From positions 128,586 through 192,585 of the forward strand of contig JAKLIG010000001.1 in NCBI GenBank assembly GCA_022709735.1: a stretch of DNA of 64,000 nucleotides, written 5' to 3'. Shown here one piece after another: positions 5,184-35,663 of this stretch. The position numbers were made by a program, and so were the translations under genes. A model generated the notes under the pieces. That model was not told the DNA's origin, did not search any database, and was given only the letters and a program-made list of their open reading frames with translations. The DNA comes from Patescibacteria group bacterium (GTDB lineage Bacteria; Patescibacteriota; Minisyncoccia; Moranbacterales; UBA2206). The first letter of the stretch is position 1, and each line of letters starts with the position of its first letter.

Positions 5184-5819
5184 TTAATTTTTCTTAAGCC
5201 ATTTGACTCCGGCATAAACAACTGGAGTTTCAAAAACGGAAACTAAACATTTTAGTATCCAATAAGGAATTATAAGTCCAAAAAGAAAAACAACATTATT
5301 TGCGAGGGGTTTGTCCAGAGAATAGAAAGCAAATAAATAGAAAATACTGGTATCGAAAAATTGAGCGATAAAATTTGAAACATTGTTTCTTAACCACAAA
5401 GATTTCTCTTTCATCATTTCTCTTATTTTGACGAAAACTAACACATCTAGATATTCCGCAACGAAAAAGGCGATCAAGCTCGATATAGATATTCTAATAG
5501 AAACTCCGAATATATTTTTATAGGCGGATTGATTTTCGGAAAATCTTTGAGAAGGAGGAAGGCTTATTGCTAAAAAAGAAAACAGAATCAAGAAAACAAT
5601 CATAATAAGTCCGGATTTAATTATACTTTTTGTTCTTTCTTTTCCGTATACTTCAGCAATAATATCATTAACAGTAAAAATAAAAGGCATCAAGAATATA
5701 GCAACGCTTGCACTGAATTTTCCTATCAATGGAAAAGTTTTAGCTCCCATTAATTCGGAAACTATTATGCAAAAAATGTAGAGAGAAATTAGAAAGTCAA
5801 GCTTATTTATTTTTAACAT
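5184..5819 (-). CDS. Queuosine-precursor transporter-like membrane protein (YhhQ/VUT family, DUF165)
   Basis: ~210 aa, 6 TM, FTVNDIIAEVYG motif resembling YhhQ family. Confidence 0.5.
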   Translation of the reverse strand: MLKINKLDFLISLYIFCIIVSELMGAKTFPLIGKFSASVAIFLMPFIFTVNDIIAEVYGKERTKSIIKSGLIMIVFLILFSFLAISLPPSQRFSENQSAYKNIFGVSIRISISSLIAFFVAEYLDVLVFVKIREMMKEKSLWLRNNVSNFIAQFFDTSIFYLFAFYSLDKPLANNVVFLFGLIIPYWILKCLVSVFETPVVYAGVKWLKKN

Positions 5820-6065: not shown

Positions 6066-6085
6066 CCTGCCTGCCGGCAGGCAGG
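6066..6085. repeat. GC-rich 20-bp perfect palindrome CCTGCCTGCCGGCAGGCAGG (copy 1 of dispersed family)
   Basis: Perfect palindrome in AT-rich spacer upstream of typA, flanked by CGAAT direct repeat; near-identical copies at 30941-30963 and 35617-35634. Confidence 0.8.
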
Positions 6086-6185: not shown

Positions 6186-7985
6186 ATGGAAATTCGAAAC
6201 ATTGCTATTATCGCGCATGTTGATCATGGCAAAACAACAATTACCGACGCTCTAATGAAACAAACCGGAATGGTGAGTGAAGAAGGAGCGACAATGGACA
6301 CAAACGCCCTCGAAAAAGAGCGCGGTATTACGATTTATGCTAAAAATGCTTGTCTTTTTTATAAAGATACGAAAATCAATATCGTAGACACTCCGGGGCA
6401 TGCTGATTTTGGAAGCGAAGTAGAAAGAGTTTTACGTTCAATTGACAGCGTGCTTTTGGTCGTTGACGCGCAAGAAGGCCCAATGCCACAAACTCGATTT
6501 GTGCTCAAAAAATCACTGGAGCTCGGACTTCGTCCGATTGTAGTAATAAACAAAATAGACAAACCTGCCGCTGATCCAGCCATGGCGCAAGAAAAAGTTT
6601 TTGAATTATTTTTAGATTTGGGCGCCAGCGACGAACAATTGGATTTTGAAACAATTTATACGATTGGAAAACAGGAGATTGCTAAAATGCATTTGGATGA
6701 TGAAAGCCAGAATATGAATCCGCTTTTGGATTTAGTTTTGGAAAAAGTTTCACCGGCTGATGCAAAAAAAGACATTCCTCTTCGCGCCCAGCCTTTCAAT
6801 TTGGGTTATGATAATTTTTTGGGGCGTCTCGCCATTCTTCGAATTTATGAAGGAACAATTAAAAACGGAAGCAATTTGTATCTTAAGAAAATAAATGGTG
6901 AGATAAAAAGTGGAAGGATAACTAAGCTTTTTAGTTTTCACGGAATGGAACGGCGAGAAATTGAAGAATCAATTGCTGGAGACATTGTGATGATGTCTGG
7001 TTTTCCGGATATTGAAATAGGCGATACGATTTGTGAAGATCAAAACCAAGAAATTTTACCGGCCATTTCAATTGATGAGCCGACCATTTCACTTAGATTT
7101 TTGGCGAACGATTCGCCCTTTTCCGGGAAAGACGGAAAATTTGTGACGACCAAACAAATCAGAGAAAGATTGGAAAAAGAATTGGAAATAAATGTTGGGC
7201 TAAAAATTGATTTTACTTCTTCGGAATTTTGGAAAGTTTATGGCCGAGGCGAACTTCACATCGCGATACTTTTGGAAAATATGCGACGCGAAGGTTATGA
7301 AATTCAGGTTTCGCAACCGCAGGTGATTATAAAAGATATTGATGGGATAAAATCAGAACCGTTTGAAGAAGCGACGATTGATGTTCCAACAGAAATGTCC
7401 GGTTCAATTATTGAAACGCTTGGGAAAAGAAAAGGAATTATGGTTGATATGCAGACGCATGGAAATATAACGCGAATGATTTTTGAAATTCCAACGCGCG
7501 GAATTTTGGGATATCGCGGACAATTTGTTATGGATACAAAAGGTCTTGGAATTATGTGTTCGCGCGTGATTGGATTTCGACCATACGCTGGAGAAATTTC
7601 CAAACGCGAAGTTGGTTCAATGATTTCGATGGCTTCCGGAAAAGCACTTGGTTTTTCATTGGCGAATCTTCAACAAAGAGGCACGCTTTATATTGGCCCT
7701 GGAATGGAAATTTATGAAGGCATGGTGATTGGCAATGTATCAAAAGGTGAGGATATGGCAGTCAACCCGACCAAAGGAAAGCAAATGAGTAACATGAGAT
7801 CATCTGGCGCCGATGAAGCGATTCATCTTGTCCCGCCGATGAATTTGAATATTGAACGAGGCTTGGAAATTATGGCGGAAGACGAATATCTTGAAATCAC
7901 TCCGCATTCGGTGCGACTTCGAAAAGAATTTTTGACGGAAGTTGATAGAAATCGCGCGGGGAGGAAAAAAAATAATAATTCTTGA
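6186..7985 (+). CDS. typA: Translational GTPase TypA/BipA
   Basis: AHVDHGKTT G1 motif, DTPGHADF G3, NKIDK G4, full-length 599 aa with EF-G-like C-terminal domains. Confidence 0.95.
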   Translation: MEIRNIAIIAHVDHGKTTITDALMKQTGMVSEEGATMDTNALEKERGITIYAKNACLFYKDTKINIVDTPGHADFGSEVERVLRSIDSVLLVVDAQEGPMPQTRFVLKKSLELGLRPIVVINKIDKPAADPAMAQEKVFELFLDLGASDEQLDFETIYTIGKQEIAKMHLDDESQNMNPLLDLVLEKVSPADAKKDIPLRAQPFNLGYDNFLGRLAILRIYEGTIKNGSNLYLKKINGEIKSGRITKLFSFHGMERREIEESIAGDIVMMSGFPDIEIGDTICEDQNQEILPAISIDEPTISLRFLANDSPFSGKDGKFVTTKQIRERLEKELEINVGLKIDFTSSEFWKVYGRGELHIAILLENMRREGYEIQVSQPQVIIKDIDGIKSEPFEEATIDVPTEMSGSIIETLGKRKGIMVDMQTHGNITRMIFEIPTRGILGYRGQFVMDTKGLGIMCSRVIGFRPYAGEISKREVGSMISMASGKALGFSLANLQQRGTLYIGPGMEIYEGMVIGNVSKGEDMAVNPTKGKQMSNMRSSGADEAIHLVPPMNLNIERGLEIMAEDEYLEITPHSVRLRKEFLTEVDRNRAGRKKNNNS

Positions 7986-8206: not shown

Positions 8207-8247
8207 AAAACTCGTTCAGCAGATATCTGCTGAACGAGTTTTTTTAT
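8207..8247 (+). terminator. Rho-independent terminator
   Basis: aaaactcgttcagcagatatctgctgaacgagttttttt: 13-bp perfect stem plus T-run. Confidence 0.8.
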
Positions 8248-8381: not shown

Positions 8382-8418
8382 AGATTTGTAGTATATAAAA
8401 GTGGTGAAAAGTGGAGAA

Positions 8419-8506
8419 TTACGAACTACGAAATTAATACGAAAGTACGAAAATACGAAAAGGGATTTTGAAATGTTTCGTATTTCGTTAATTTCGTAGT
8501 TCGTAA
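8419..8506. repeat. 88-bp inverted repeat built from TTACGAACTACGAAATTA/TACGAAA units, candidate mraZ operator
   Basis: Arm 8419-8437 TTACGAACTACGAAATTAA is the exact reverse complement of 8488-8506; inner TACGAAA direct repeats; lies between promoter -10 and mraZ ATG; the 18-mer recurs at 9510 and 24652. Confidence 0.75.
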
Positions 8507-8513
8507 ATAATTT

Positions 8514-8948
8514 ATGTTTATTGGCGAGTATCAACATTCTATTGATCCGAAAAAAAGATTGGCAGTGCCATCGAAGTTTCGAAGTGATTTGAAAAATAAA
8601 GTCGTGGTAACGAAAGGACTGGATAAGTGTCTCATCATCTATCCAATGAAAGTTTGGCAAGAACTGGCAGAAAAACTCGGAACACTTCCGATTGGAGAAT
8701 CCGCCACGCGAAGTTTTGTTCGTTCAATGCTAGCTGGCGCAGTGGATTGCGAGATTGACAAGCAAGGAAGAATTTTGATTCCAGATTTTTTGCGCGAATA
8801 TGCGGCGCTTGGCAAGAATGTCATCATCGCCGGAGTGTATAATCGCTTAGAAATTTGGGACGAAAAGAAATGGAATGGATACAAGAAGAATGCGGAAAAA
8901 AATACGGATGAAATTGCAGAACAACTGGGTAAATTGGGAGTATATTAG
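8514..8948 (+). CDS. mraZ: Transcriptional regulator MraZ
   Basis: MFIGEYQHSIDPKKRLAVPSKFR... two MraZ/SpoVT-AbrB repeats, first gene of dcw cluster. Confidence 0.9.
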   Translation: MFIGEYQHSIDPKKRLAVPSKFRSDLKNKVVVTKGLDKCLIIYPMKVWQELAEKLGTLPIGESATRSFVRSMLAGAVDCEIDKQGRILIPDFLREYAALGKNVIIAGVYNRLEIWDEKKWNGYKKNAEKNTDEIAEQLGKLGVY

Positions 8949-9092
8949 AAAATAATTTTCAATTATCAATTTACAATTTACAATAAATTTTCAATTAAAT
9001 AATTTTCAACATATTGTTTTATTTGAAAATTGATTATTGATTATTGTAAATTGATTGAAAATTGATTATTGTAAATTGAAAATTAAAACCAG
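8949..9092. repeat. AT-rich imperfect inverted repeat built from CAATTTACAAT / TTTTCAATT units
   Basis: Left arm 8955-9005 and right arm 9030-9088 are approximate reverse complements; same motif at 31673-31715 and inside rsmH 9290-9340. Confidence 0.6.
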
Positions 9093-10094
9093 ATGTCTAT
9101 TCACAAGCCAGTATTGCTAAGCGAAACAATAGAAGCATTAAATCTTAAAAAAGGCGATGTTGTGGTAGATGCGACTTTCGGACAAGGAGGACATAGCCGC
9201 GAAGTATTGAAGAGAATAGGAAGTAAAGGAATAATAGTCGGAATTGATACAGACGAGGATGTTATAAAAAATTTCGCGGAATTTCCAATTTCCAAATCTC
9301 AATTTCCAAATAATTTTCAAATTCCAATTTACAAAAAAGAAAATATTTTTTTAGTCAACAGTAATTTTAATAATCTAGAAATAATTTTAAAAATAATCGG
9401 AATAGAAAAAGTTGATGCGATCCTCGCTGATCTTGGCTGGTCAAGTGACCAGCTCAAAGGAAAGGGAATGAGTTTTCAGGAAGATGAAGAGCTGGATATG
9501 CGATTATCTTTACGAACTACGAAATTAACGAACTACGAAAAAATAAACAGTGAAAACCTAAGCGCTAAAGATATTGTAAATAATTATTCAGAAGAAGAAC
9601 TGGGGAGAATTATTAGAAAATATGGCGAAGAAAAATTTTGGAAAAATATTGCGAGAAAAATAGTTGAATATAGAAAAGATAAAAAAATAGAAAAGACTAA
9701 AGAATTGGCGGAAATTATAAAAACTGCCATTCCGGAAAAGTTCAGGCATACCAAACTAAATCCAGCGACGAGAACTTTTCAAGCTTTGCGAATCGAAGTC
9801 AATGAGGAACTAGAAAATCTGGAAAAATTTATTCCGCAAGCAATCAAAGTTTTGAAGCCGAAAGGCAGACTGGCGATAATCGCATTTCATTCGTTAGAAG
9901 ATAGAATTATTAAAGATAAGTTCCGGGAAAATGCAAGGGGATGCATTTGCCCGCCGGATTTTCCGCAGTGTATTTGCGGAAAAAGTCCGAAGGTTTCAAT
10001 CATCACGAGAAAGCCGATCATGGCCAGTGATGCGGAAATCAAAAACAATCCAAGGTCTAGAAGCGCTAAGCTTCGAGTAATTGAGAAAAAATAA
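9093..10094 (+). CDS. rsmH: 16S rRNA (cytosine1402-N4)-methyltransferase RsmH (MraW)
   Basis: DATFGQGGHS SAM motif, LADLGWSSDQL, DMR motif; 333 aa with two extra in-frame segments derived from repeat families. Confidence 0.9.
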   Translation: MSIHKPVLLSETIEALNLKKGDVVVDATFGQGGHSREVLKRIGSKGIIVGIDTDEDVIKNFAEFPISKSQFPNNFQIPIYKKENIFLVNSNFNNLEIILKIIGIEKVDAILADLGWSSDQLKGKGMSFQEDEELDMRLSLRTTKLTNYEKINSENLSAKDIVNNYSEEELGRIIRKYGEEKFWKNIARKIVEYRKDKKIEKTKELAEIIKTAIPEKFRHTKLNPATRTFQALRIEVNEELENLEKFIPQAIKVLKPKGRLAIIAFHSLEDRIIKDKFRENARGCICPPDFPQCICGKSPKVSIITRKPIMASDAEIKNNPRSRSAKLRVIEKK

Positions 10095-17174: not shown

Positions 17175-17423
17175 ATGTATTATCTCTATATTCTCAAATG
17201 CGCTGACAAAACTTTATATACCGGAATTACTACGGACTTAGAAAGAAGAATTGTCGAACATAACAACACGAAACTTGGCGCAAAATATACCGCTTTTCGC
17301 CGACCAGTAAAATTGGTTTACTGCAAAAAATTCAAAAGTCGGTCGCTAGCTTCCAAAGAAGAAGCTAAAATTAAAAAATTGAGAAGAATTCAAAAGTTAG
17401 AATTAATTAAAAAAGCTAAATAA
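17175..17423 (+). CDS. GIY-YIG nuclease family protein (UPF0213/YhbQ-like)
   Basis: YYLYILKCADKTLYTGITTDLERRIVEHN GIY-YIG motif; ATG at 17175 chosen (track ORF starts at GTG 17166). Confidence 0.8.
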   Translation: MYYLYILKCADKTLYTGITTDLERRIVEHNNTKLGAKYTAFRRPVKLVYCKKFKSRSLASKEEAKIKKLRRIQKLELIKKAK

Positions 17424-17965: not shown

Positions 17966-18421
17966 ATGAATGAAGTAGAAATTTTTAATCATCTTTTTGA
18001 AATAGCAAAAAAATCGCATGATCCGCGCGGAGTAGTATCAGCATGTCTGATTAATGGGGATGAAATTATTACTTCATCGGCCAGCGCTGATGATGGAAAG
18101 CTTCATGCTGAAGAAATTGTTATTGAAAAAGGCAAAGAGGATATAACTAATTCGACAGTATTATATTCCACGCTTGAACCATGTAGCCAGAGAAAAAACA
18201 AAGAAATTATTGATTGTACGACAGTAATAATAAATAGCGGAATAAAGAATGTGATATTCGGGGCAAAAGATCCAGAACATAGTAGCAAAACGCATAAAAG
18301 ATTGGGAGAAAAAGGAATTTCGATTAGACAAACAACCAATCCGGATATTATAAAAAAATGCGCGCAAATTTTTAACGGCACAGTTTTAGAAAAAGATGTT
18401 AAATTAAAACCAGAAGATTAA
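17966..18421 (+). CDS. CMP/dCMP-type zinc deaminase domain protein
   Basis: HAEE ... LEPCSQR...C zinc-ligand pattern. Confidence 0.45.
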   Translation: MNEVEIFNHLFEIAKKSHDPRGVVSACLINGDEIITSSASADDGKLHAEEIVIEKGKEDITNSTVLYSTLEPCSQRKNKEIIDCTTVIINSGIKNVIFGAKDPEHSSKTHKRLGEKGISIRQTTNPDIIKKCAQIFNGTVLEKDVKLKPED

Positions 18422-18433
18422 TTGTAAAATAAC

Positions 18434-18465
18434 ATTCTCATATTCTGCAGAATGTCAGAATATTA
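18434..18465. repeat. Composite palindrome, ATTCTGCAGAAT core with flanking ATTCT/AGAAT half-sites (copy 1)
   Basis: cattctcatattctgcagaatgtcagaatatt; related copies at 21669-21694 and 22032-22071. Confidence 0.75.
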
Positions 18466-18477
18466 TTTTAAAATACT

Positions 18478-21744: not shown

Positions 21745-22044
21745 ATGCTTGCTAAAAAACGCAAATTTCAAAAAAATGTCAAAACCCCAAAACAAATGGA
21801 GCGACATTTGAAAGGCGTGGCTAACCATAGGCGGATTGAAATACTTTTTCTAATTGCTAGAGAAGAAGGAATCACATTAGATGGTATTTGCGAAGATTTA
21901 AGCTGTAATGTTAAAACTATTTCTGAACATACTAAAAAATTAGTTCAGGCGGGATTGGTAAATAAAAACTACAAAGGTAGGGAAGTGAAGCATTCTCTTT
22001 CTCCATACGGCAAACGCTTTCTAAAATTCATACAAACATTCTGA
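21745..22044 (+). CDS. ArsR/SmtB-family winged-helix transcriptional regulator
   Basis: HRRIEILFLI ... TISEHTKKLVQAGLV HTH pattern; 99 aa. Confidence 0.6.
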   Translation: MLAKKRKFQKNVKTPKQMERHLKGVANHRRIEILFLIAREEGITLDGICEDLSCNVKTISEHTKKLVQAGLVNKNYKGREVKHSLSPYGKRFLKFIQTF

Positions 22045-22071
22045 CATTCTGCAGAATATCAGAATGTTTGT
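22032..22071. repeat. 40-bp near-perfect palindrome ACAAACATTCTGACATTCTGCAGAATATCAGAATGTTTGT (copy 3) overlapping regulator stop codon
   Basis: 13-bp perfect outer arms plus ATTCTGCAGAAT core. Confidence 0.8.
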
Positions 22072-22186
22072 ATATTTAAATTATTGTTTAAATCTTTAAA
22101 TGAATAATAGAATTGTTATTTTATAAAAGTGGTTTTTTGGGAAAATATCGGGTATAATATGGTTAATAAATATAACACTTAAATTT

Positions 22187-24651: not shown

Positions 24652-24669
24652 TTACGAACTACGAAATTA
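24652..24669. repeat. TTACGAACTACGAAATTA 18-mer (copy 3 of mraZ-operator-like repeat) plus TACGAAA unit
   Basis: Exact 18-mer shared with 8420-8437 and 9510-9527, in spacer before rmuC. Confidence 0.8.
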
Positions 24670-24695
24670 GCGAAATACGAAATTTGTAAAAAAAC

Positions 24696-25784: not shown

Positions 25785-25803
25785 GAATTAGGAATTATGC
25801 AGT

Positions 25804-26220
25804 ATGAATTATGAAATGCAAAAAGAAAATGATACCGGCAAGAAAGGCTTGATTTCTAGATTCAAGCTTTTTTTCAATAATGATTTTTTCAAAAATCATA
25901 TCATTCTTTGGCTTTTGGTTTTCAACTTTCTGGCTAATTTGGCAAACTGGTTGGTCTTGGCGATTTTCATAAACAAATCCGAAGGGGATATAATCTTGCA
26001 TTATAATGTATATTTCGGTGTGGATAATTTTGGAAATTGGAAACAGGTTTTTTTGATGCCGGCTATCGGCCTGTTTTTGTTTCTAGTTAATTTTCAGCTG
26101 TCATTTTTTTTCTATAAGAATAAAGAAAGAATCGCGAGCTATACTTTGCTTCTGGCATCACTCATGGCTCAACTAAGCTTGATAATTGCCGCAGTTAGTG
26201 TTATACTAATAAACTATTAA
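25804..26220 (+). CDS. Membrane protein (4 TM), hypothetical
   Basis: 138 aa hydrophobic ORF preceding GT2 gene. Confidence 0.4.
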   Translation: MNYEMQKENDTGKKGLISRFKLFFNNDFFKNHIILWLLVFNFLANLANWLVLAIFINKSEGDIILHYNVYFGVDNFGNWKQVFLMPAIGLFLFLVNFQLSFFFYKNKERIASYTLLLASLMAQLSLIIAAVSVILINY

Positions 26221-30799: not shown

Positions 30800-31672
30800 T
30801 TAGATTTCAAAGGAAGCAACGCGCCATTTTCCGGCTAAATCTTTTTGAAATTCAACTTTTGCTTTAGGAAAATATTTTTTGATTAATTTTGAAATTTTTT
30901 GTTTTTGTTCGGGACTAATTTCCAAGATAGCTTTTAGCTTACCTGCCTCGCCGGCAGGCGGGTAGCTTTTAGCTTCTAACTTTTTAATCTGTCGGAATAA
31001 TTTTTCATAGTGGTTTAGTCCATCAATTCCGGAAAGCAAAGCTGATTTTGGTTCAAAGTTTTTAACATCGGGAGAAGTTTTGGAATAAATTATTTCAGAG
31101 AGATAAGGAAGATTGGCGACGATAATTAGTTTGTTAGCTTTTAGCTTTTGGCTTTTAGTAAAAAAATAATTCAATAAATCAGATTGAATAAATTTAATTT
31201 TTTTATCAACTTTATTTTTTTTCGCATTATATTCGGCAACACACAATGCTTTTTTAGAAATATCAATTCCAATAAATTTATTTCTAGTTTTTAAATTTTT
31301 TGCCAAGCTAATTATTATATTTCCGCTACCCGTCCCTAAGTCTATTATTGTGCTGTTTTTTGGGCTTATTTTAAGGACTTCTTCAACTAAATGTTCTGTT
31401 TCTGGTCGAGGGATAAGAACATGCTTGTTCACCTTAAAATCAAGGCCATAAAACTCTTTTTGGCCCAAAATATAGGCAATCGGCTCGTGTTTTAGCCGTC
31501 TTTTTACATACTTCTTAATTCTTTCTTCTTGCTTCTTATTCAAATTGTATTCCGGATGCGCCAAAATAAACTCACGAGACTTTTTTAGGGCGTGAGCGAT
31601 AATTAATTCAAGATCTAAACTATCTAATTTTGAAGAATATTTATTGAAATAATCTTTTATTATCACAACCAA
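30800..31672 (-). CDS. prmC: Release factor glutamine methyltransferase PrmC (HemK)
   Basis: DLGTGSGNIIISLAK SAM motif, VANLPYL (NPPY-type) motif; downstream of prfA. Confidence 0.8.
   Translation of the reverse strand: MVVIIKDYFNKYSSKLDSLDLELIIAHALKKSREFILAHPEYNLNKKQEERIKKYVKRRLKHEPIAYILGQKEFYGLDFKVNKHVLIPRPETEHLVEEVLKISPKNSTIIDLGTGSGNIIISLAKNLKTRNKFIGIDISKKALCVAEYNAKKNKVDKKIKFIQSDLLNYFFTKSQKLKANKLIIVANLPYLSEIIYSKTSPDVKNFEPKSALLSGIDGLNHYEKLFRQIKKLEAKSYPPAGEAGKLKAILEISPEQKQKISKLIKKYFPKAKVEFQKDLAGKWRVASFEI
30929..30975. repeat. GC-rich palindrome ACCTGCCTCGCCGGCAGGCGGGT flanked by 12-bp direct repeat AGCTTTTAGCTT, inside prmC reading frame
   Basis: Palindrome 30941-30963; direct repeats 30929-30940 and 30964-30975; encodes PPAGEAG on minus strand. 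Confidence 0.8.
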
Positions 31673-31715
31673 TTTACAATTTTCAATTTACAATTATTTG
31701 ATCATTGAAAATTAA
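31673..31715. repeat. AT-rich CAATTTACAAT repeat cluster in prfA-prmC spacer
   Basis: caatttacaattttcaatttacaatt... shares units with 8949-9092. Confidence 0.6.
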
Positions 31716-35560: not shown

Positions 35561-35606
35561 TTTTTTAATGTCATTCCGAACTTGATCCGGAATCTATATA
35601 AATTAG

Positions 35607-35648
35607 ATCCTGAAACCTGCCTGCCGGCAGGCACGGCAAGTTCAGGAT
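35607..35648. repeat. GC-rich palindrome CCTGCCTGCCGGCAGGCA (copy 3) nested in ATCCTGAAA/TTCAGGAT inverted repeat
   Basis: Between glyA stop and RmlA-like start; preceded by a second hairpin attccgaacttgatccggaat. Confidence 0.8.
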
Positions 35649-35663
35649 GAAAAAAATAATAAT

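Follow-up and report, generated by a model that had tools for sequence, protein, structure and literature searches.

The window, by which we mean the whole stretch of 64 kb analysed here, has a GC content of 33% and contains three copies of a GC-rich 20-bp palindrome, CCTGCCTGCCGGCAGGCAGG, which we named P (Table 1). This corresponds to a density of about one copy per 20 kb. The three near-identical palindromes had been described in the first-pass annotation and are indeed present, with coordinates that were off by 1-2 nt at most. Dinucleotide-preserving shuffles of the window gave 0.00 matches to P at ≤3 mismatches versus three observed, which bears out the claim of a recurrence far beyond chance and rules out chance or base composition as the origin of the copies. 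Moreover, the sequences on either side of each copy are unrelated among the three, so that the copies are not pieces of one longer duplicated segment and can be regarded as independent palindromes, as had been proposed.

Table 1. Palindrome copies, hairpins and genes of the window discussed in the text.
Feature	Position	Strand	Description
Vut_1-type gene	5184-5819	-	
Palindrome copy 1	6066-6085	.	perfect 20-mer CCTGCCTGCCGGCAGGCAGG, solo copy
typA	6186-7985		
Single-domain GIY-YIG nuclease gene	17175-17423	+	82 aa, PF01541 at 1e-16
prmC	30800-31672	-	
Tandem 7-nt array hosting copy 2	30928-30975	-	coding strand TAGAAGC TAAAAGC TAC^AAGC TAAAAGC
Palindrome copy 2	30942-30962	.	21-nt variant CCTGCCTCGCCGGCAGGCGGG (+ strand), inside prmC
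Second SRM-like hairpin	35570-35594	+	GTCATTCCGAACTTGATCCGGAATC, inverted relative to the host hairpin of copy 3
Host hairpin of copy 3	35605-35650	-	TCATCCTGAACTTG[insert]TTTCAGGATCT
Palindrome copy 3	35616-35635	.	CCTGCCTGCCGGCAGGCACG, one mismatch, glyA-rmlA spacer

Copy 1 lies in the spacer between the divergent Vut_1-type and typA genes, with divergent promoter-like sites on both sides, and breaks a perfect TTACGAA heptamer dimer (TTACGAA TTA^CGAA). Its RNA folds at -16.2 kcal/mol into an 8-bp stem with a CCGG loop. Copy 2 differs from the 20-mer by one additional C and one A>G and forms an in-frame 7-codon insert in prmC, which adds the peptide PPAGEAG in a hypervariable loop; the same 21-mer variant recurs in the metagenome locus L163. 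Around the insertion point AGCT..AGCT could pair as a 4-bp mini-stem, and the 13-bp direct repeat TAGCTTTTAGCTT flanks the copy on either side. This repeat is due to an older 7-nt tandem array, which is present in empty-site orthologues too. Copy 3 is enclosed by an outer stem (GATCCTGAAAC/GTTCAGGATGA) and interrupts an SRM-like hairpin in its loop, the nested structure folding at -36.7 kcal/mol on the minus strand. The host hairpin fits the GTCAT-stem-loop-stem-ATCT grammar of Ssn-related motifs, with a T in place of the 5' G, and the second SRM-like hairpin has GTCATTCC...GGAATC in common with Neisseria NTS/dRS3. The strict SRM pattern, HGTCWYN(0-2)YYVSBRHN(0-5)WNVSBRGN(0-2)RNCYNB (PMC11893778), has no match in the window, and the host hairpin of copy 3 fails it too. 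Furthermore, an Rfam scan of the whole window returned zero families at gathering score.

Spread of the palindrome and its sites of insertion

The exact 20-mer is present in at least 120 species genomes, among them members of Patescibacteria, Bacteroidota (with cultured isolates), Omnitrophota, PVC (Planctomycetota included), Nitrospirota and other phyla, and cultured carriers are found in Winogradskyella, Flagellimonas, Longitalea, Flavivirga, Aquiflexum, Aestuariivivens, and Agriterribacter; Winogradskyella echinorum KCTC 22026 and Ekhidna lutea are examples. Exact P also occurs in 35 viral-contig stretches; the plasmids of PLSDB and the phages of INPHARED gave just chance-level partial matches. 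The sequence around the copies is unrelated from genome to genome. A sequencing adaptor or assembly artefact was rejected on account of the variants, the in-frame 21-mers, the cultured isolates and the unique surrounding sequence. A search of the literature for the P sequence or its peptides found no match, and P is absent from a survey of REP sequences (PMC3733652).

In the flanks of 125 copies the sole preference, a weak one, is for A at position -1 and for T at position +1, and a bias towards T is absent. Only 25% of the copies are located inside ORFs compared to 66% of random positions, which represents a depletion, and those in coding sequence are found in both orientations. Altogether the settings comprise coding sequence, tRNA fragments, and spacers of divergent or convergent genes, which share no relation to promoters. 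This weighs on the idea that P is a double-stranded site, either the operator of a dimeric protein, the target of a restriction-modification system with GCCGGC at its centre, or a signal for DNA uptake. The perfect 20-bp dyad has the usual size for a dimeric DNA-binding protein, and GCCGGC is a known restriction site. However, the frequent variants of P change exactly this core (GTCGGC, ACCGGC, GCCGAC), and the window shows no avoidance or other enrichment of GCCGGC, its 11 sites versus 5.4 expected not representing a strong enrichment and 3/11 being the palindromes themselves. The copy density is far under that of uptake sequences, and identity across phyla argues against a signal for species recognition. 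The restriction site and the uptake sequence had both been among the functions initially considered for the palindrome; the former does not agree with the altered cores, the latter is unlikely at the density and spread observed, and we give a double-stranded site of any kind hardly any credence.

P is a discrete unit of 20 bp, or of 21 bp in frame in genes, which is inserted without target duplication. Filled sites are longer than empty ones by exactly 20 bp, or by 21 bp in coding sequence, as can be seen in the prmC orthologues P0011 and P0004, in which the site is empty (AGC TAC|AAG CTA) and exactly 21 bp shorter than the filled one. At 37/40 junctions in tRNA fragments, the tRNA numbering runs on from one side of P to the other with no base duplicated or lost, and clean insertions can be read directly in the loci L037, L106, L118, and L030. 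What would mark a MITE of a DDE insertion sequence, terminal inverted repeats together with a target-site duplication of fixed length, does not apply to P, as a duplication is absent from these junctions and from prmC. The 7-bp repeats that flank P at a few loci are part of pre-existing heptamer arrays; a 7-bp target-site duplication that leaves such arrays behind was rejected as well, since the junctions are clean and sites lacking P have the arrays too. The first-pass annotation had also suggested a REP/RPE-like miniature palindromic element, which alone among the functions it proposed gains support, namely from the discrete 20/21-bp insertion, its presence or absence in prmC, the clean tRNA junctions, the in-frame copies and the dispersal of P.

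Furthermore, P favours the loops of existing stem-loops, i.e. the D, anticodon and T loops of tRNAs, SRM-like hairpins and its own centre, and it is also found in 7-nt tandem arrays. Within tRNA fragments it is positioned at 10-23 (D arm), 32/39 (anticodon arm), and 51-70 (T arm), and the position varies inside one tRNA type (14, 15, 22, and 23 in tRNA-Leu, 10-39 in tRNA-Arg). Inverted repeats of ≥8 bp flank 5.7% of the P sites versus 0.6% of the control positions, and in the loci L179 and L228 one P is nested within another. The 7-nt arrays and SRM-like hairpins that host P include ones in essential genes such as prmC and rsmH. An intron-like role of P in functional tRNAs was mostly rejected, as ARAGORN and direct reading revealed duplicated fragments beside intact genes; the tRNA-Met of locus L148, which carries P in its variable loop, may be an exception.

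GIY-YIG nuclease genes and split tRNA genes

A GIY-YIG profile was built from three palindrome-adjacent ORFs, a search of metagenomes with it yielded 493 relatives, and the best 80 of these 493 loci were examined. The query proteins had been picked for their adjacency to P, which biases the first members but not the other ~77 loci at 40-57% identity. P or a variant of it (≤3 edits) is located ≤200 bp from the ORF in 62 of the 80 best loci. In 42 of these 62, P lies in a 5' tRNA fragment upstream of the ORF and an intact tRNA follows downstream, and nine show the mirror arrangement. ORF and tRNA are co-oriented in all linked loci, with P on the side opposite the tRNA. A recognizable P is missing from 17-18 of the 80 loci, some of which bear other GC hairpins (L160, L039), and the strict SRM pattern is found within 300 bp of the ORF in 0/80. 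The ORFs beside P encode 78-101 aa with PF01541 as the sole Pfam match, and the solved structures closest to the clade are the UPF0213 proteins 1YWL (E 7.5e-12) and 1ZG2 (3.5e-10), followed by SLX1. The clade has more than 7,500 relatives, the named ones coming from WWE3, Omnitrophota, Bacteroidota, and Nitrospirota, a range which matches that of P. IMG/VR contains a single close match to the clade, and therefore phage carriage is not the obvious vector of the nuclease. The gene recurrently found beside P encodes a GIY-YIG protein, and inspection by eye together with the GIY-YIG profile gave no other recurrent candidate enzyme. A literature search for GIY-YIG, tRNA and palindrome together retrieved nothing relevant.

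The window itself encodes a small single-domain GIY-YIG protein, which scores 53 bits against the profile of the palindrome-linked proteins and has neither a tRNA nor a palindrome beside its gene. It is a relative of the palindrome-linked clade and a candidate for a trans-acting partner. On the same contig, 2.3 kb left of the window, there is an element consisting of tRNA-Gln, a GIY-YIG gene and an orphan tRNA fragment, which carries no P. A second sample contains a contig identical to the source contig, so that strain polymorphism is not available there.

When the association is counted from the palindrome, 15/125 copies are found ≤300 bp from a tRNA (random 3%) and 4/125 ≤300 bp from an ORF of the clade (random 0.8%), and ~88% of the genomic copies, judged over 8 kb of sequence, have GIY-YIG genes nowhere near them. 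The geometry of the linked loci can be read in the sense that P is a protective (immunity) insertion, or a scar left by repair, where GIY-YIG homing endonucleases cut tRNA genes. P would disrupt this site in the leftover fragment and be co-converted with the gene, the solo copies being secondary. The distance between P and the ORF boundary is 6-35 nt within the host sequence of the tRNA fragments, in the hsdS-like gene of L060, where there is no tRNA, P is located 21 nt upstream of the GIY-YIG domain, and the unit ORF-tRNA5'-P is repeated in tandem in L225, L171, L212, and L176. This resembles GIY-YIG homing enzymes that cut away from their insertion site, such as I-TevI and SegB, which cleave at a short distance from the insertion site of their own gene. 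However, the intact neighbouring tRNA leaves the putative cleavage site whole, which would make the immunity incomplete, and the positions of P scatter within one tRNA type (tRNA-Leu, tRNA-Arg). Neither a scar nor a blocker needs a single exact sequence across phyla, ~88% of the copies are remote from tRNA and nuclease genes alike, and those of the window reside in heptamer arrays and an SRM-like hairpin instead of nuclease target genes. Hence, we consider a scar or immunity insertion to be quite unlikely.

The co-orientation of ORF and tRNA opposite P would also suit a hairpin that acts at the RNA level as terminator or mRNA-end protector and caps the nuclease mRNA at the 5' end when upstream or at the 3' end when downstream, the other end being set by tRNA processing. 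The RNA stem of about -16 kcal/mol is strong, and REPs are known to stabilise mRNAs. Terminator and RNA stabiliser had been proposed in the first-pass annotation, too, but there is no T-tract after P, neither of the intergenic window copies scores as a terminator, copy 1 is located between divergent promoters, and coding sequences harbor P in both orientations. Moreover, a generic stabiliser does not need an invariant sequence over phyla at 33-59% GC. We regard a function of this kind as very improbable.

The exact 20-mer is found at 35 loci, the GIY-YIG ORFs of which share a median of 51% amino acid and 59% nucleotide identity at a locus GC of 33-59%. That exact P is kept while the nuclease diverges to this extent implies a sequence-specific reader. 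The same observation stands against P being an independent selfish palindrome comparable to the mitochondrial GC clusters, which would be moved by some other activity or by hairpin template switching and be linked to GIY-YIG genes only indirectly. Such an element would pile up in dispensable, hairpin-rich DNA like orphan tRNA fragments and module-rich spacers; the majority of copies are solo, the depletion in ORFs is as expected for insertions under selective filtering, P occurs in viral contigs where the GIY-YIG clade is almost never found, and other GC hairpins take equivalent positions in some loci. Yet, the proportion of GIY-YIG loci with P is far above a passive build-up in a fragment of 20-50 nt, unless the local insertion rate is very high, and inspection by eye and with the GIY-YIG profile gave no other enzyme that recurs. 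We therefore regard an independent palindrome as unlikely, though less so than a scar.

Interpretation and comparison with known hairpin systems

With slightly more confidence than doubt, we take P to be the REP/NTS-like hairpin partner of a clade of Ssn-like single-domain GIY-YIG nucleases, the window representing a genome region with three solo copies. P would then be a non-coding and non-autonomous hairpin cassette of the REP/NTS type, and its partner a large clade of nucleases of ~80-95 aa with Ssn-like architecture, whose genes have an intact tRNA on one side and a duplicated part of it on the other. By analogy with SsnA/NTS, the nuclease may read P as a folded single-stranded hairpin, for which both sequence and structure matter. 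Cuts in loops, followed by repair and ligation by the host, could then spread P to new loops and occasionally lead to its precise loss. The copies of the window would have been seeded as solo P, two in heptamer arrays and one in an SRM-like hairpin, and the prmC copy may persist due to its 21-nt version in a tolerant surface loop. It counts against this explanation that GIY-YIG enzymes are hydrolytic and thus perform no strand transfer by themselves. The lack of the strict SRM pattern around the genes, the distance of most genomic copies from GIY-YIG genes, the loci with no recognizable P, and the missing P at the tRNA-Gln element and at the GIY-YIG gene of the window weigh in the same direction. 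Moreover, the link between P and GIY-YIG genes could reflect a shared taste of two independent elements for tRNA-derived hairpins.

The Ssn nucleases are single-domain GIY-YIG proteins of 94 aa, which bind a specific repeated hairpin solely as ssDNA, cut beside it and tolerate loop extensions, and their genes are flanked by hairpins of which hundreds of dispersed copies exist (Chenal et al., 2025, Nat Commun 16:2388; PMC11893778). Similar to Ssn/SRM, P is a short hairpin repeat (20-30 nt) paired with a single-domain GIY-YIG gene of ~80-95 aa and is found both beside that gene and dispersed in the genome, with three copies in the 64 kb studied here. Both are conserved in sequence and not in structure alone, as the exact 20-mer beside 51%-identical ORFs demonstrates for P, and both systems span phyla. 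In addition, copy 3 is enclosed by a hairpin of NTS grammar (GTCATYC..stem..loop..stem..GRATCT). Unlike NTS/SRM, P lacks a GTCAT-type 5' tag and, as a perfect dyad, has no orientation. Furthermore, it flanks just one end of the gene, where it occupies an orphan tRNA fragment, and the P-linked genes sit within tRNA genes that are split or duplicated, a setting of which the Ssn study makes no mention (PMC11893778). The P-linked clade can be called similar to the Ssn family (cd10448) by its architecture, and the nearest solved structures are UPF0213 proteins, not a demonstrated Ssn. The cross-phylum identity of P, the link to GIY-YIG and split tRNA genes and the SRM/NTS-like nature of the outer stem of copy 3 go beyond what the first-pass annotation had covered.

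P also resembles the REP/REPIN sequences and their RAYT proteins in being a short GC-rich hairpin (REP 20-40 nt) without target-site duplication, which is dispersed and at times located in genes, and for both the presumed agent of mobilisation in trans is the product of a single-copy nuclease gene that the hairpins flank. However, neither a GTAG nor a CGTC tag is present in the flanks of the 125 copies, and P does not vary from phylum to phylum and is usually low-copy, in contrast to the genus-specific REP families. The RAYT proteins are IS200/IS605-like HUH enzymes, while the proposed partner of P is a GIY-YIG nuclease that forms no covalent intermediate. Rickettsia palindromic elements (RPEs) and the QMITEs of Coxiella are palindromic selfish DNA of AT-rich reduced genomes that is found in frame in essential genes. 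P adds a peptide to a tolerant loop of an essential protein in the same way, but in contrast to RPEs, which are lineage-specific and 100-150 bp long, it has 20-21 bp, encodes seven residues and is common to several phyla. Short, almost pure-GC palindromes in AT-rich genomes are further known as the GC clusters of yeast mitochondria and the PstI palindromes of Neurospora, which flank tRNA genes. As in these, some copies of P are optional in a coding gene, some lie by tRNA genes, and mobility is deduced from presence and absence; the mitochondrial palindromes differ in being organellar, species-specific and often accompanied by short target duplications. We know of no GIY-YIG partner shown for them. 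SegB of phage T4, finally, is a free-standing GIY-YIG homing endonuclease that acts in a tRNA gene cluster (PMC2330249), and it shares with the P-linked genes the location among or beside tRNA genes and the selfish behaviour. Unlike the clade described here, SegB has several domains, cuts dsDNA and leaves behind neither a palindrome cassette nor a duplicated tRNA fragment.

More speculatively, P might be the smallest mobile DNA unit so far, put into ssDNA loops by ~80-aa GIY-YIG ssDNA nucleases without target duplication and with the option of precise loss, and kept as one invariant sequence in at least eight phyla. The nuclease genes would then form an undescribed class of selfish elements that split tRNA genes, rebuild an intact copy and mark the leftover with P, and the host arrays and hairpins would be parts of one nested "hairpin ecosystem". 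We consider this extended version tentative and rather doubtful.

That a 20-bp sequence remains identical across phyla and viral contigs, beside a gene whose identity has fallen to 50%, speaks for a very conserved molecular reader. Should the GIY-YIG proteins cleave at P in its ssDNA form, the Ssn toolbox for cutting ssDNA at specific sites would gain a new and well-defined specificity, and this would also give access to the way in which hairpin repeats spread through genomes. Reduced CPR genomes tolerate such selfish hairpins within essential genes. For annotation, the split-tRNA architecture is a recognizable signature which could help to flag pseudo-tRNA fragments, spurious "PACRQAG/LPAGRQ" ORFs and, in uncultured bacteria, inserts of seven residues within conserved proteins.

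The palindrome and the prmC site

The GC-rich palindrome P (20 bp, or 21 bp when in frame) is real and of interest well beyond that of a local repeat. The window has a GC content of 33%, and the almost pure-GC dyad is present three times (copies 1-3, see table), whereas dinucleotide-preserving shuffles of the window predict no match at up to three mismatches. The sequences surrounding the copies are unrelated to each other. The RNA of each copy is predicted to fold into a CCGG loop on an 8-bp stem (about -16 kcal/mol); an Rfam search of the whole window gave no match, and no tRNA genes are located within it. Copy 1 occupies the spacer that separates typA from a minus-strand gene, with divergent promoter-like sites on either side and no T-run at its 3' side, and removal of its 20-mer leaves TTACGAA TTACGAA, a perfect heptamer dimer. 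A function of P as stabiliser of RNA ends is poorly supported, as is one as operator, restriction site or uptake site. The glyA-rmlA spacer contains copy 3, enclosed on the minus strand by the loop of TCATCCTGAACTTG^TTTCAGGATCT, and a second hairpin, GTCATTCCGAACTTGATCCGGAATC, adjoins it. Both outer hairpins share a grammar with NTS (CGTCATTCCCGCGMAVGCGGGAATCYRG; Chenal et al., 2025, PMC11893778) and Ssn-related motifs, and the strict SRM search pattern of the same authors was found in neither of them.

Copy 2 is located inside the minus-strand prmC, where it keeps the frame and encodes the central part of ..AKSY-PPAGEAG-KLKAILEIS... PrmC homologues were aligned at 55-70% identity, and the DNA was compared for three of them (P0003, P0004, P0011). 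On the coding strand, the site reads AGC TAC / CCG CCT GCC GGC GAG GCA GGT / AAG CTA in the window and AGC TAC / CTG CCT CGT CGG CAG GCG GGC / AAG CTA in P0003, whereas it is empty in P0011 and P0004 (AGC TAC / AAG CTA). Filled and empty sites thus differ by exactly 21 bp and show no duplication of the target. The 21-mer of P0003 is the opposite-strand reading of that in the window with one mismatch. Among the 120 closest homologues of PrmC, at least eight contain palindrome-derived peptides (LPRRQAG, LPAGRL, ACLSGRQV, ACLPKRQV, PACPVGRL, LPACRQAW, and PACRRGR elsewhere in PrmC). The 13-bp "direct repeat" flanking copy 2 comes from a tandem array of 7-nt units (TAAAAGC), which is found at empty sites as well. 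P is a discrete 20/21-bp cassette with clean insertions, and the first-pass annotation, which had considered a miniature palindromic element, was correct in kind.

Coordinates of the palindrome copies, nuclease genes and repeats (L numbers, retrieved loci)
Feature	Sequence source	Position	Strand	Sequence or remark
P copy 1, perfect 20-mer	window	6066-6085		CCTGCCTGCCGGCAGGCAGG
P copy 2, 21 nt	window	30942-30962		CCTGCCTCGCCGGCAGGCGGG
P copy 3	window	35616-35635		CCTGCCTGCCGGCAGGCACG
Relative of the GIY-YIG clade	window	17175-17423		82 aa
tRNA-Gln element	L239, same contig	6930-7419	minus	2.3 kb to the left of the window start
GIY-YIG domain in host gene	L060	3760-4260
tRNA-Met with P	L148	about 2240-2330
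7-nt arrays	window	8419-8506, 8954-9088, 9280-9335, 9511-9539, 24653-24683, 25785-25815, 30963-30984, 31134-31158, 31509-31538, 31670-31695
36-bp palindrome	window	8207-8242		AAAACTCGTTCAGCAGATATCTGCTGAACGAGTTTT
AAAGTGG repeats	window	8397-8418
mraZ	window	8520-8949
AT-rich palindrome, two copies	window	18421-18474, 22030-22073		ACATTCTSAYATTCTG/CAGAATRTSAGAATGT
NTS-like hairpins	L101	481-508, 943-970, 1396-1423		CGTCATTCCCGCGWAAGCGGGAAYCTAT

Occurrence across phyla and in split tRNA genes

The exact 20-mer is present in at least 120 stretches of a one-genome-per-species collection, where less than one match in 596 Gb is expected by chance (our arithmetic, even base composition assumed). Among the matches listed, assigned by record title, are Bacteroidota (about 38 loci, cultured isolates included), Patescibacteria (about 36), MAGs labelled Gamma- or Deltaproteobacteria/Bdellovibrionales (18, label quality uncertain), Omnitrophota (10), Planctomycetota/PVC/Verrucomicrobia (8), Nitrospirota (3) and single cases of Chloroflexi, Elusimicrobia and Ignavibacteria. 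Cultured carriers, all in Bacteroidota, include Winogradskyella echinorum, Flagellimonas yonaguniensis, Longitalea luteola, Flavivirga, Aquiflexum lacus, Aestuariivivens sediminis and Agriterribacter humi. IMG/VR holds the 20-mer in 35 stretches, with one contig carrying at least six copies within 29.5 kb; in PLSDB plasmids and GenBank phages it is not above chance. No mention of the sequence was found in the searchable literature. Recurrent variants include CCTGCCTACCGGCAGGCAGG, CCTGCCTGTCGGCAGACAGG, the 16-mer CCTGCCGGCAGGCAGG and CCCGCCTGCCGGCGAGGCAGG, the prmC 21-mer of the window, which is found in L163; versions in L179 and L228 carry an extra insert at the centre, and different GC hairpins occupy the equivalent position in L160 and L039.

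P is linked to a clade of GIY-YIG nucleases that resides in split tRNA genes. According to ARAGORN and direct reading, several copies within tRNA-like sequence lie in duplicated tRNA fragments, in the order 5' fragment with P in the D-loop, ORF of about 80 aa, intact tRNA (L037 with tRNA-Lys, L106 with tRNA-Gly, L118 and L155); in L030 the fragment contains P and the ORF is absent. The ORFs beside P are single-domain GIY-YIG proteins, with PF01541 as the only Pfam match. When an alignment of three of them (A2) was scanned as a profile against a metagenome collection, 493 of 600 candidate stretches encoded relatives, and the best 80 of these were analysed. P or a variant of up to three edits lies within 200 bp of the ORF in 62 of these 80 loci, and a tRNA or P adjoins it in 79. 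In 42 loci the upstream 5' fragment bears P and the downstream tRNA is intact and co-oriented, and nine loci are mirrored, the intact tRNA and then the ORF preceding a 3' fragment whose T arm carries P. Leu and Arg tRNAs predominate, and those for Phe, Lys, Gly, Thr, Asn, Met, Gln, Tyr, Cys and Glu are represented as well. Among 125 genomic copies, 15 have a tRNA within 300 bp (3% expected) and four a GIY-YIG ORF within the same distance (0.8% expected), and therefore about 88% are solo. A rival reading, that P is a blocker or scar where a homing endonuclease cleaves, is unlikely. No tRNA is involved in L060 (Thermodesulfobacteriota MAG), where P lies 21 nt upstream of an in-frame GIY-YIG domain inside a host gene and shifts the reading from the host frame to that of the nuclease; from its motifs, we take this gene to be hsdS-like, a type I restriction specificity subunit. 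In the IMG/VR contigs L148 and L125, an otherwise complete tRNA-Met has P in the variable loop and could fold as a tRNA plus extra arm, so that tRNA-borne P is not necessarily always in a dead fragment.

P prefers loops. Insertion points in tRNA fragments fall at 10-23, 32/39 and 51-70, which places them in the D, anticodon and T arms, and tRNA coordinates are contiguous across P in 37 of the 40 cases with both flanks alignable to an intact copy; therefore, zero bases are gained or lost. Across loci the flanks are unconserved, A at -1 and T at +1 being only slightly favoured. Inverted repeats of at least 8 bp flank 5.7% of the sites (0.6% of control positions), direct repeats of at least 6 bp 7.3% (0.9%), and period-7 tandem arrays occur at 5.5% (0.5%). 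Open frames are depleted, holding 25% of the copies versus 66% of random positions in the same loci, and several clearly real genes carry P in frame, among them genes whose proteins resemble FtsK and ScpB by eye. Another rival, an independent selfish palindrome simply piling up in dispensable hairpins, is unlikely.

Other GC palindromes recur near P, TCCGCCAGCTGGCGGA in three loci (L011, L016 and one more) and CCGAACGGGTACGTTCGG in two; in L039, CCCGCCCG..CGGGCGGG encloses CCGAACGGGTACGTTCGG within the D-loop of a tRNA-Val fragment adjoined by a decayed GIY-YIG ORF. This suggests additional cassette families of the same kind.

Conservation and probable kinship with hairpin-nuclease partnerships

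The sequence of P is strongly conserved across phyla. The exact 20-mer is present in 35 GIY-YIG loci with GC contents from 33 to 59%, whose ORFs have a median identity of 51% (amino acids) and 59% (nucleotides). A neutral passenger would not keep 20 of 20 positions over such nuclease divergence. P is either specifically read or replenished again and again from a source that is itself conserved. The clade is large, as relatives (E <=1e-8) make up more than 7,500 of 8,000 candidates, its named members belonging to WWE3, Omnitrophota, Chitinophagales, Flavobacteriaceae, Cytophagales (with the cultured Ekhidna lutea) and Nitrospirota, and its phyletic range matches that of P; in IMG/VR it is almost absent. 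Ssn proteins, single-domain GIY-YIG ssDNA nucleases, recognise a specific repeated hairpin solely as ssDNA, cut alongside and tolerate loop extensions, and their hairpins flank the ssn genes and recur dispersed in hundreds of copies (PMC11893778). We infer that P is the cognate hairpin of the clade found here. A nuclease acting on single-stranded loops could account for both spread and precise loss of P; since such a nuclease is hydrolytic, we suggest that insertion might proceed by host ligation, with the ends held by the host stem. The strict SRM pattern was found around the GIY-YIG genes in none of the 80 loci and the closest solved structures are UPF0213 proteins, therefore we do not assign the clade to Ssn proper; on present evidence, it would resemble Ssn in its working. 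The system is best classed among the hairpin-repeat/nuclease partnerships, like NTS-Ssn and REP with its transposase RAYT. In the searchable literature, we found no account of this combination of the 20-mer invariant across phyla, the clean loop insertion, the in-frame 21-mers in essential genes and the home in GIY-YIG-split tRNA genes.

The source contig itself encodes at least two relatives. The gene in the window (53 bits against the A2 profile) is free-standing, tight between two membrane-protein genes with no tRNA, P or hairpin adjoining, and may be a copy that was domesticated or acts in trans. The second element, between dnaX and dnaA, is made up of tRNA-Gln and a 94-aa GIY-YIG ORF (67 bits), together with an orphan 3' fragment of tRNA-Gln that has ATA in place of the T-loop TTCGAAT; P is absent from it despite the split-tRNA architecture. 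The contig is identical in a second sample, which thus shows no polymorphism.

Heptamer arrays and other repeats

A second class of dispersed modules consists of short tandem arrays of 7-nt units (TACGAAN, AATTTAC, TTGAAAA, AATTTCC, TTAGCTT and others), located in spacers and also in frame within essential genes. In rsmH they encode EFPISKSQFPNNFQIPIYKK and LRTTKLTNYEK, and prmC has them in several variable loops; the same PrmC loop is heptamer-encoded in all 120 closest homologues, with differing array families. Two of the three window palindromes are located in heptamer arrays. The two spacer copies of an AT-rich palindrome, about 3.6 kb apart, look like operator sites of one dimeric regulator. 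Directly upstream of mraZ, AAAGTGG is repeated at a 10-nt period, resembling the MraZ operator repeats of Mollicutes, and is followed by TACGAA heptamer arrays as an inverted pair at 8419-8506. The perfect 36-bp palindrome, with a T-run after it and behind a small ORF, looks like an ordinary bidirectional terminator. In L101 (Candidatus Shapirobacteria), canonical NTS-like hairpins are in frame at the starts of three consecutive prepilin-like genes and encode the leader ..SRFHGNDG/FTLxEL.. immediately before the prepilin cleavage motif, and a copy of P with AATTACG heptamers on either side lies 400 bp from them.
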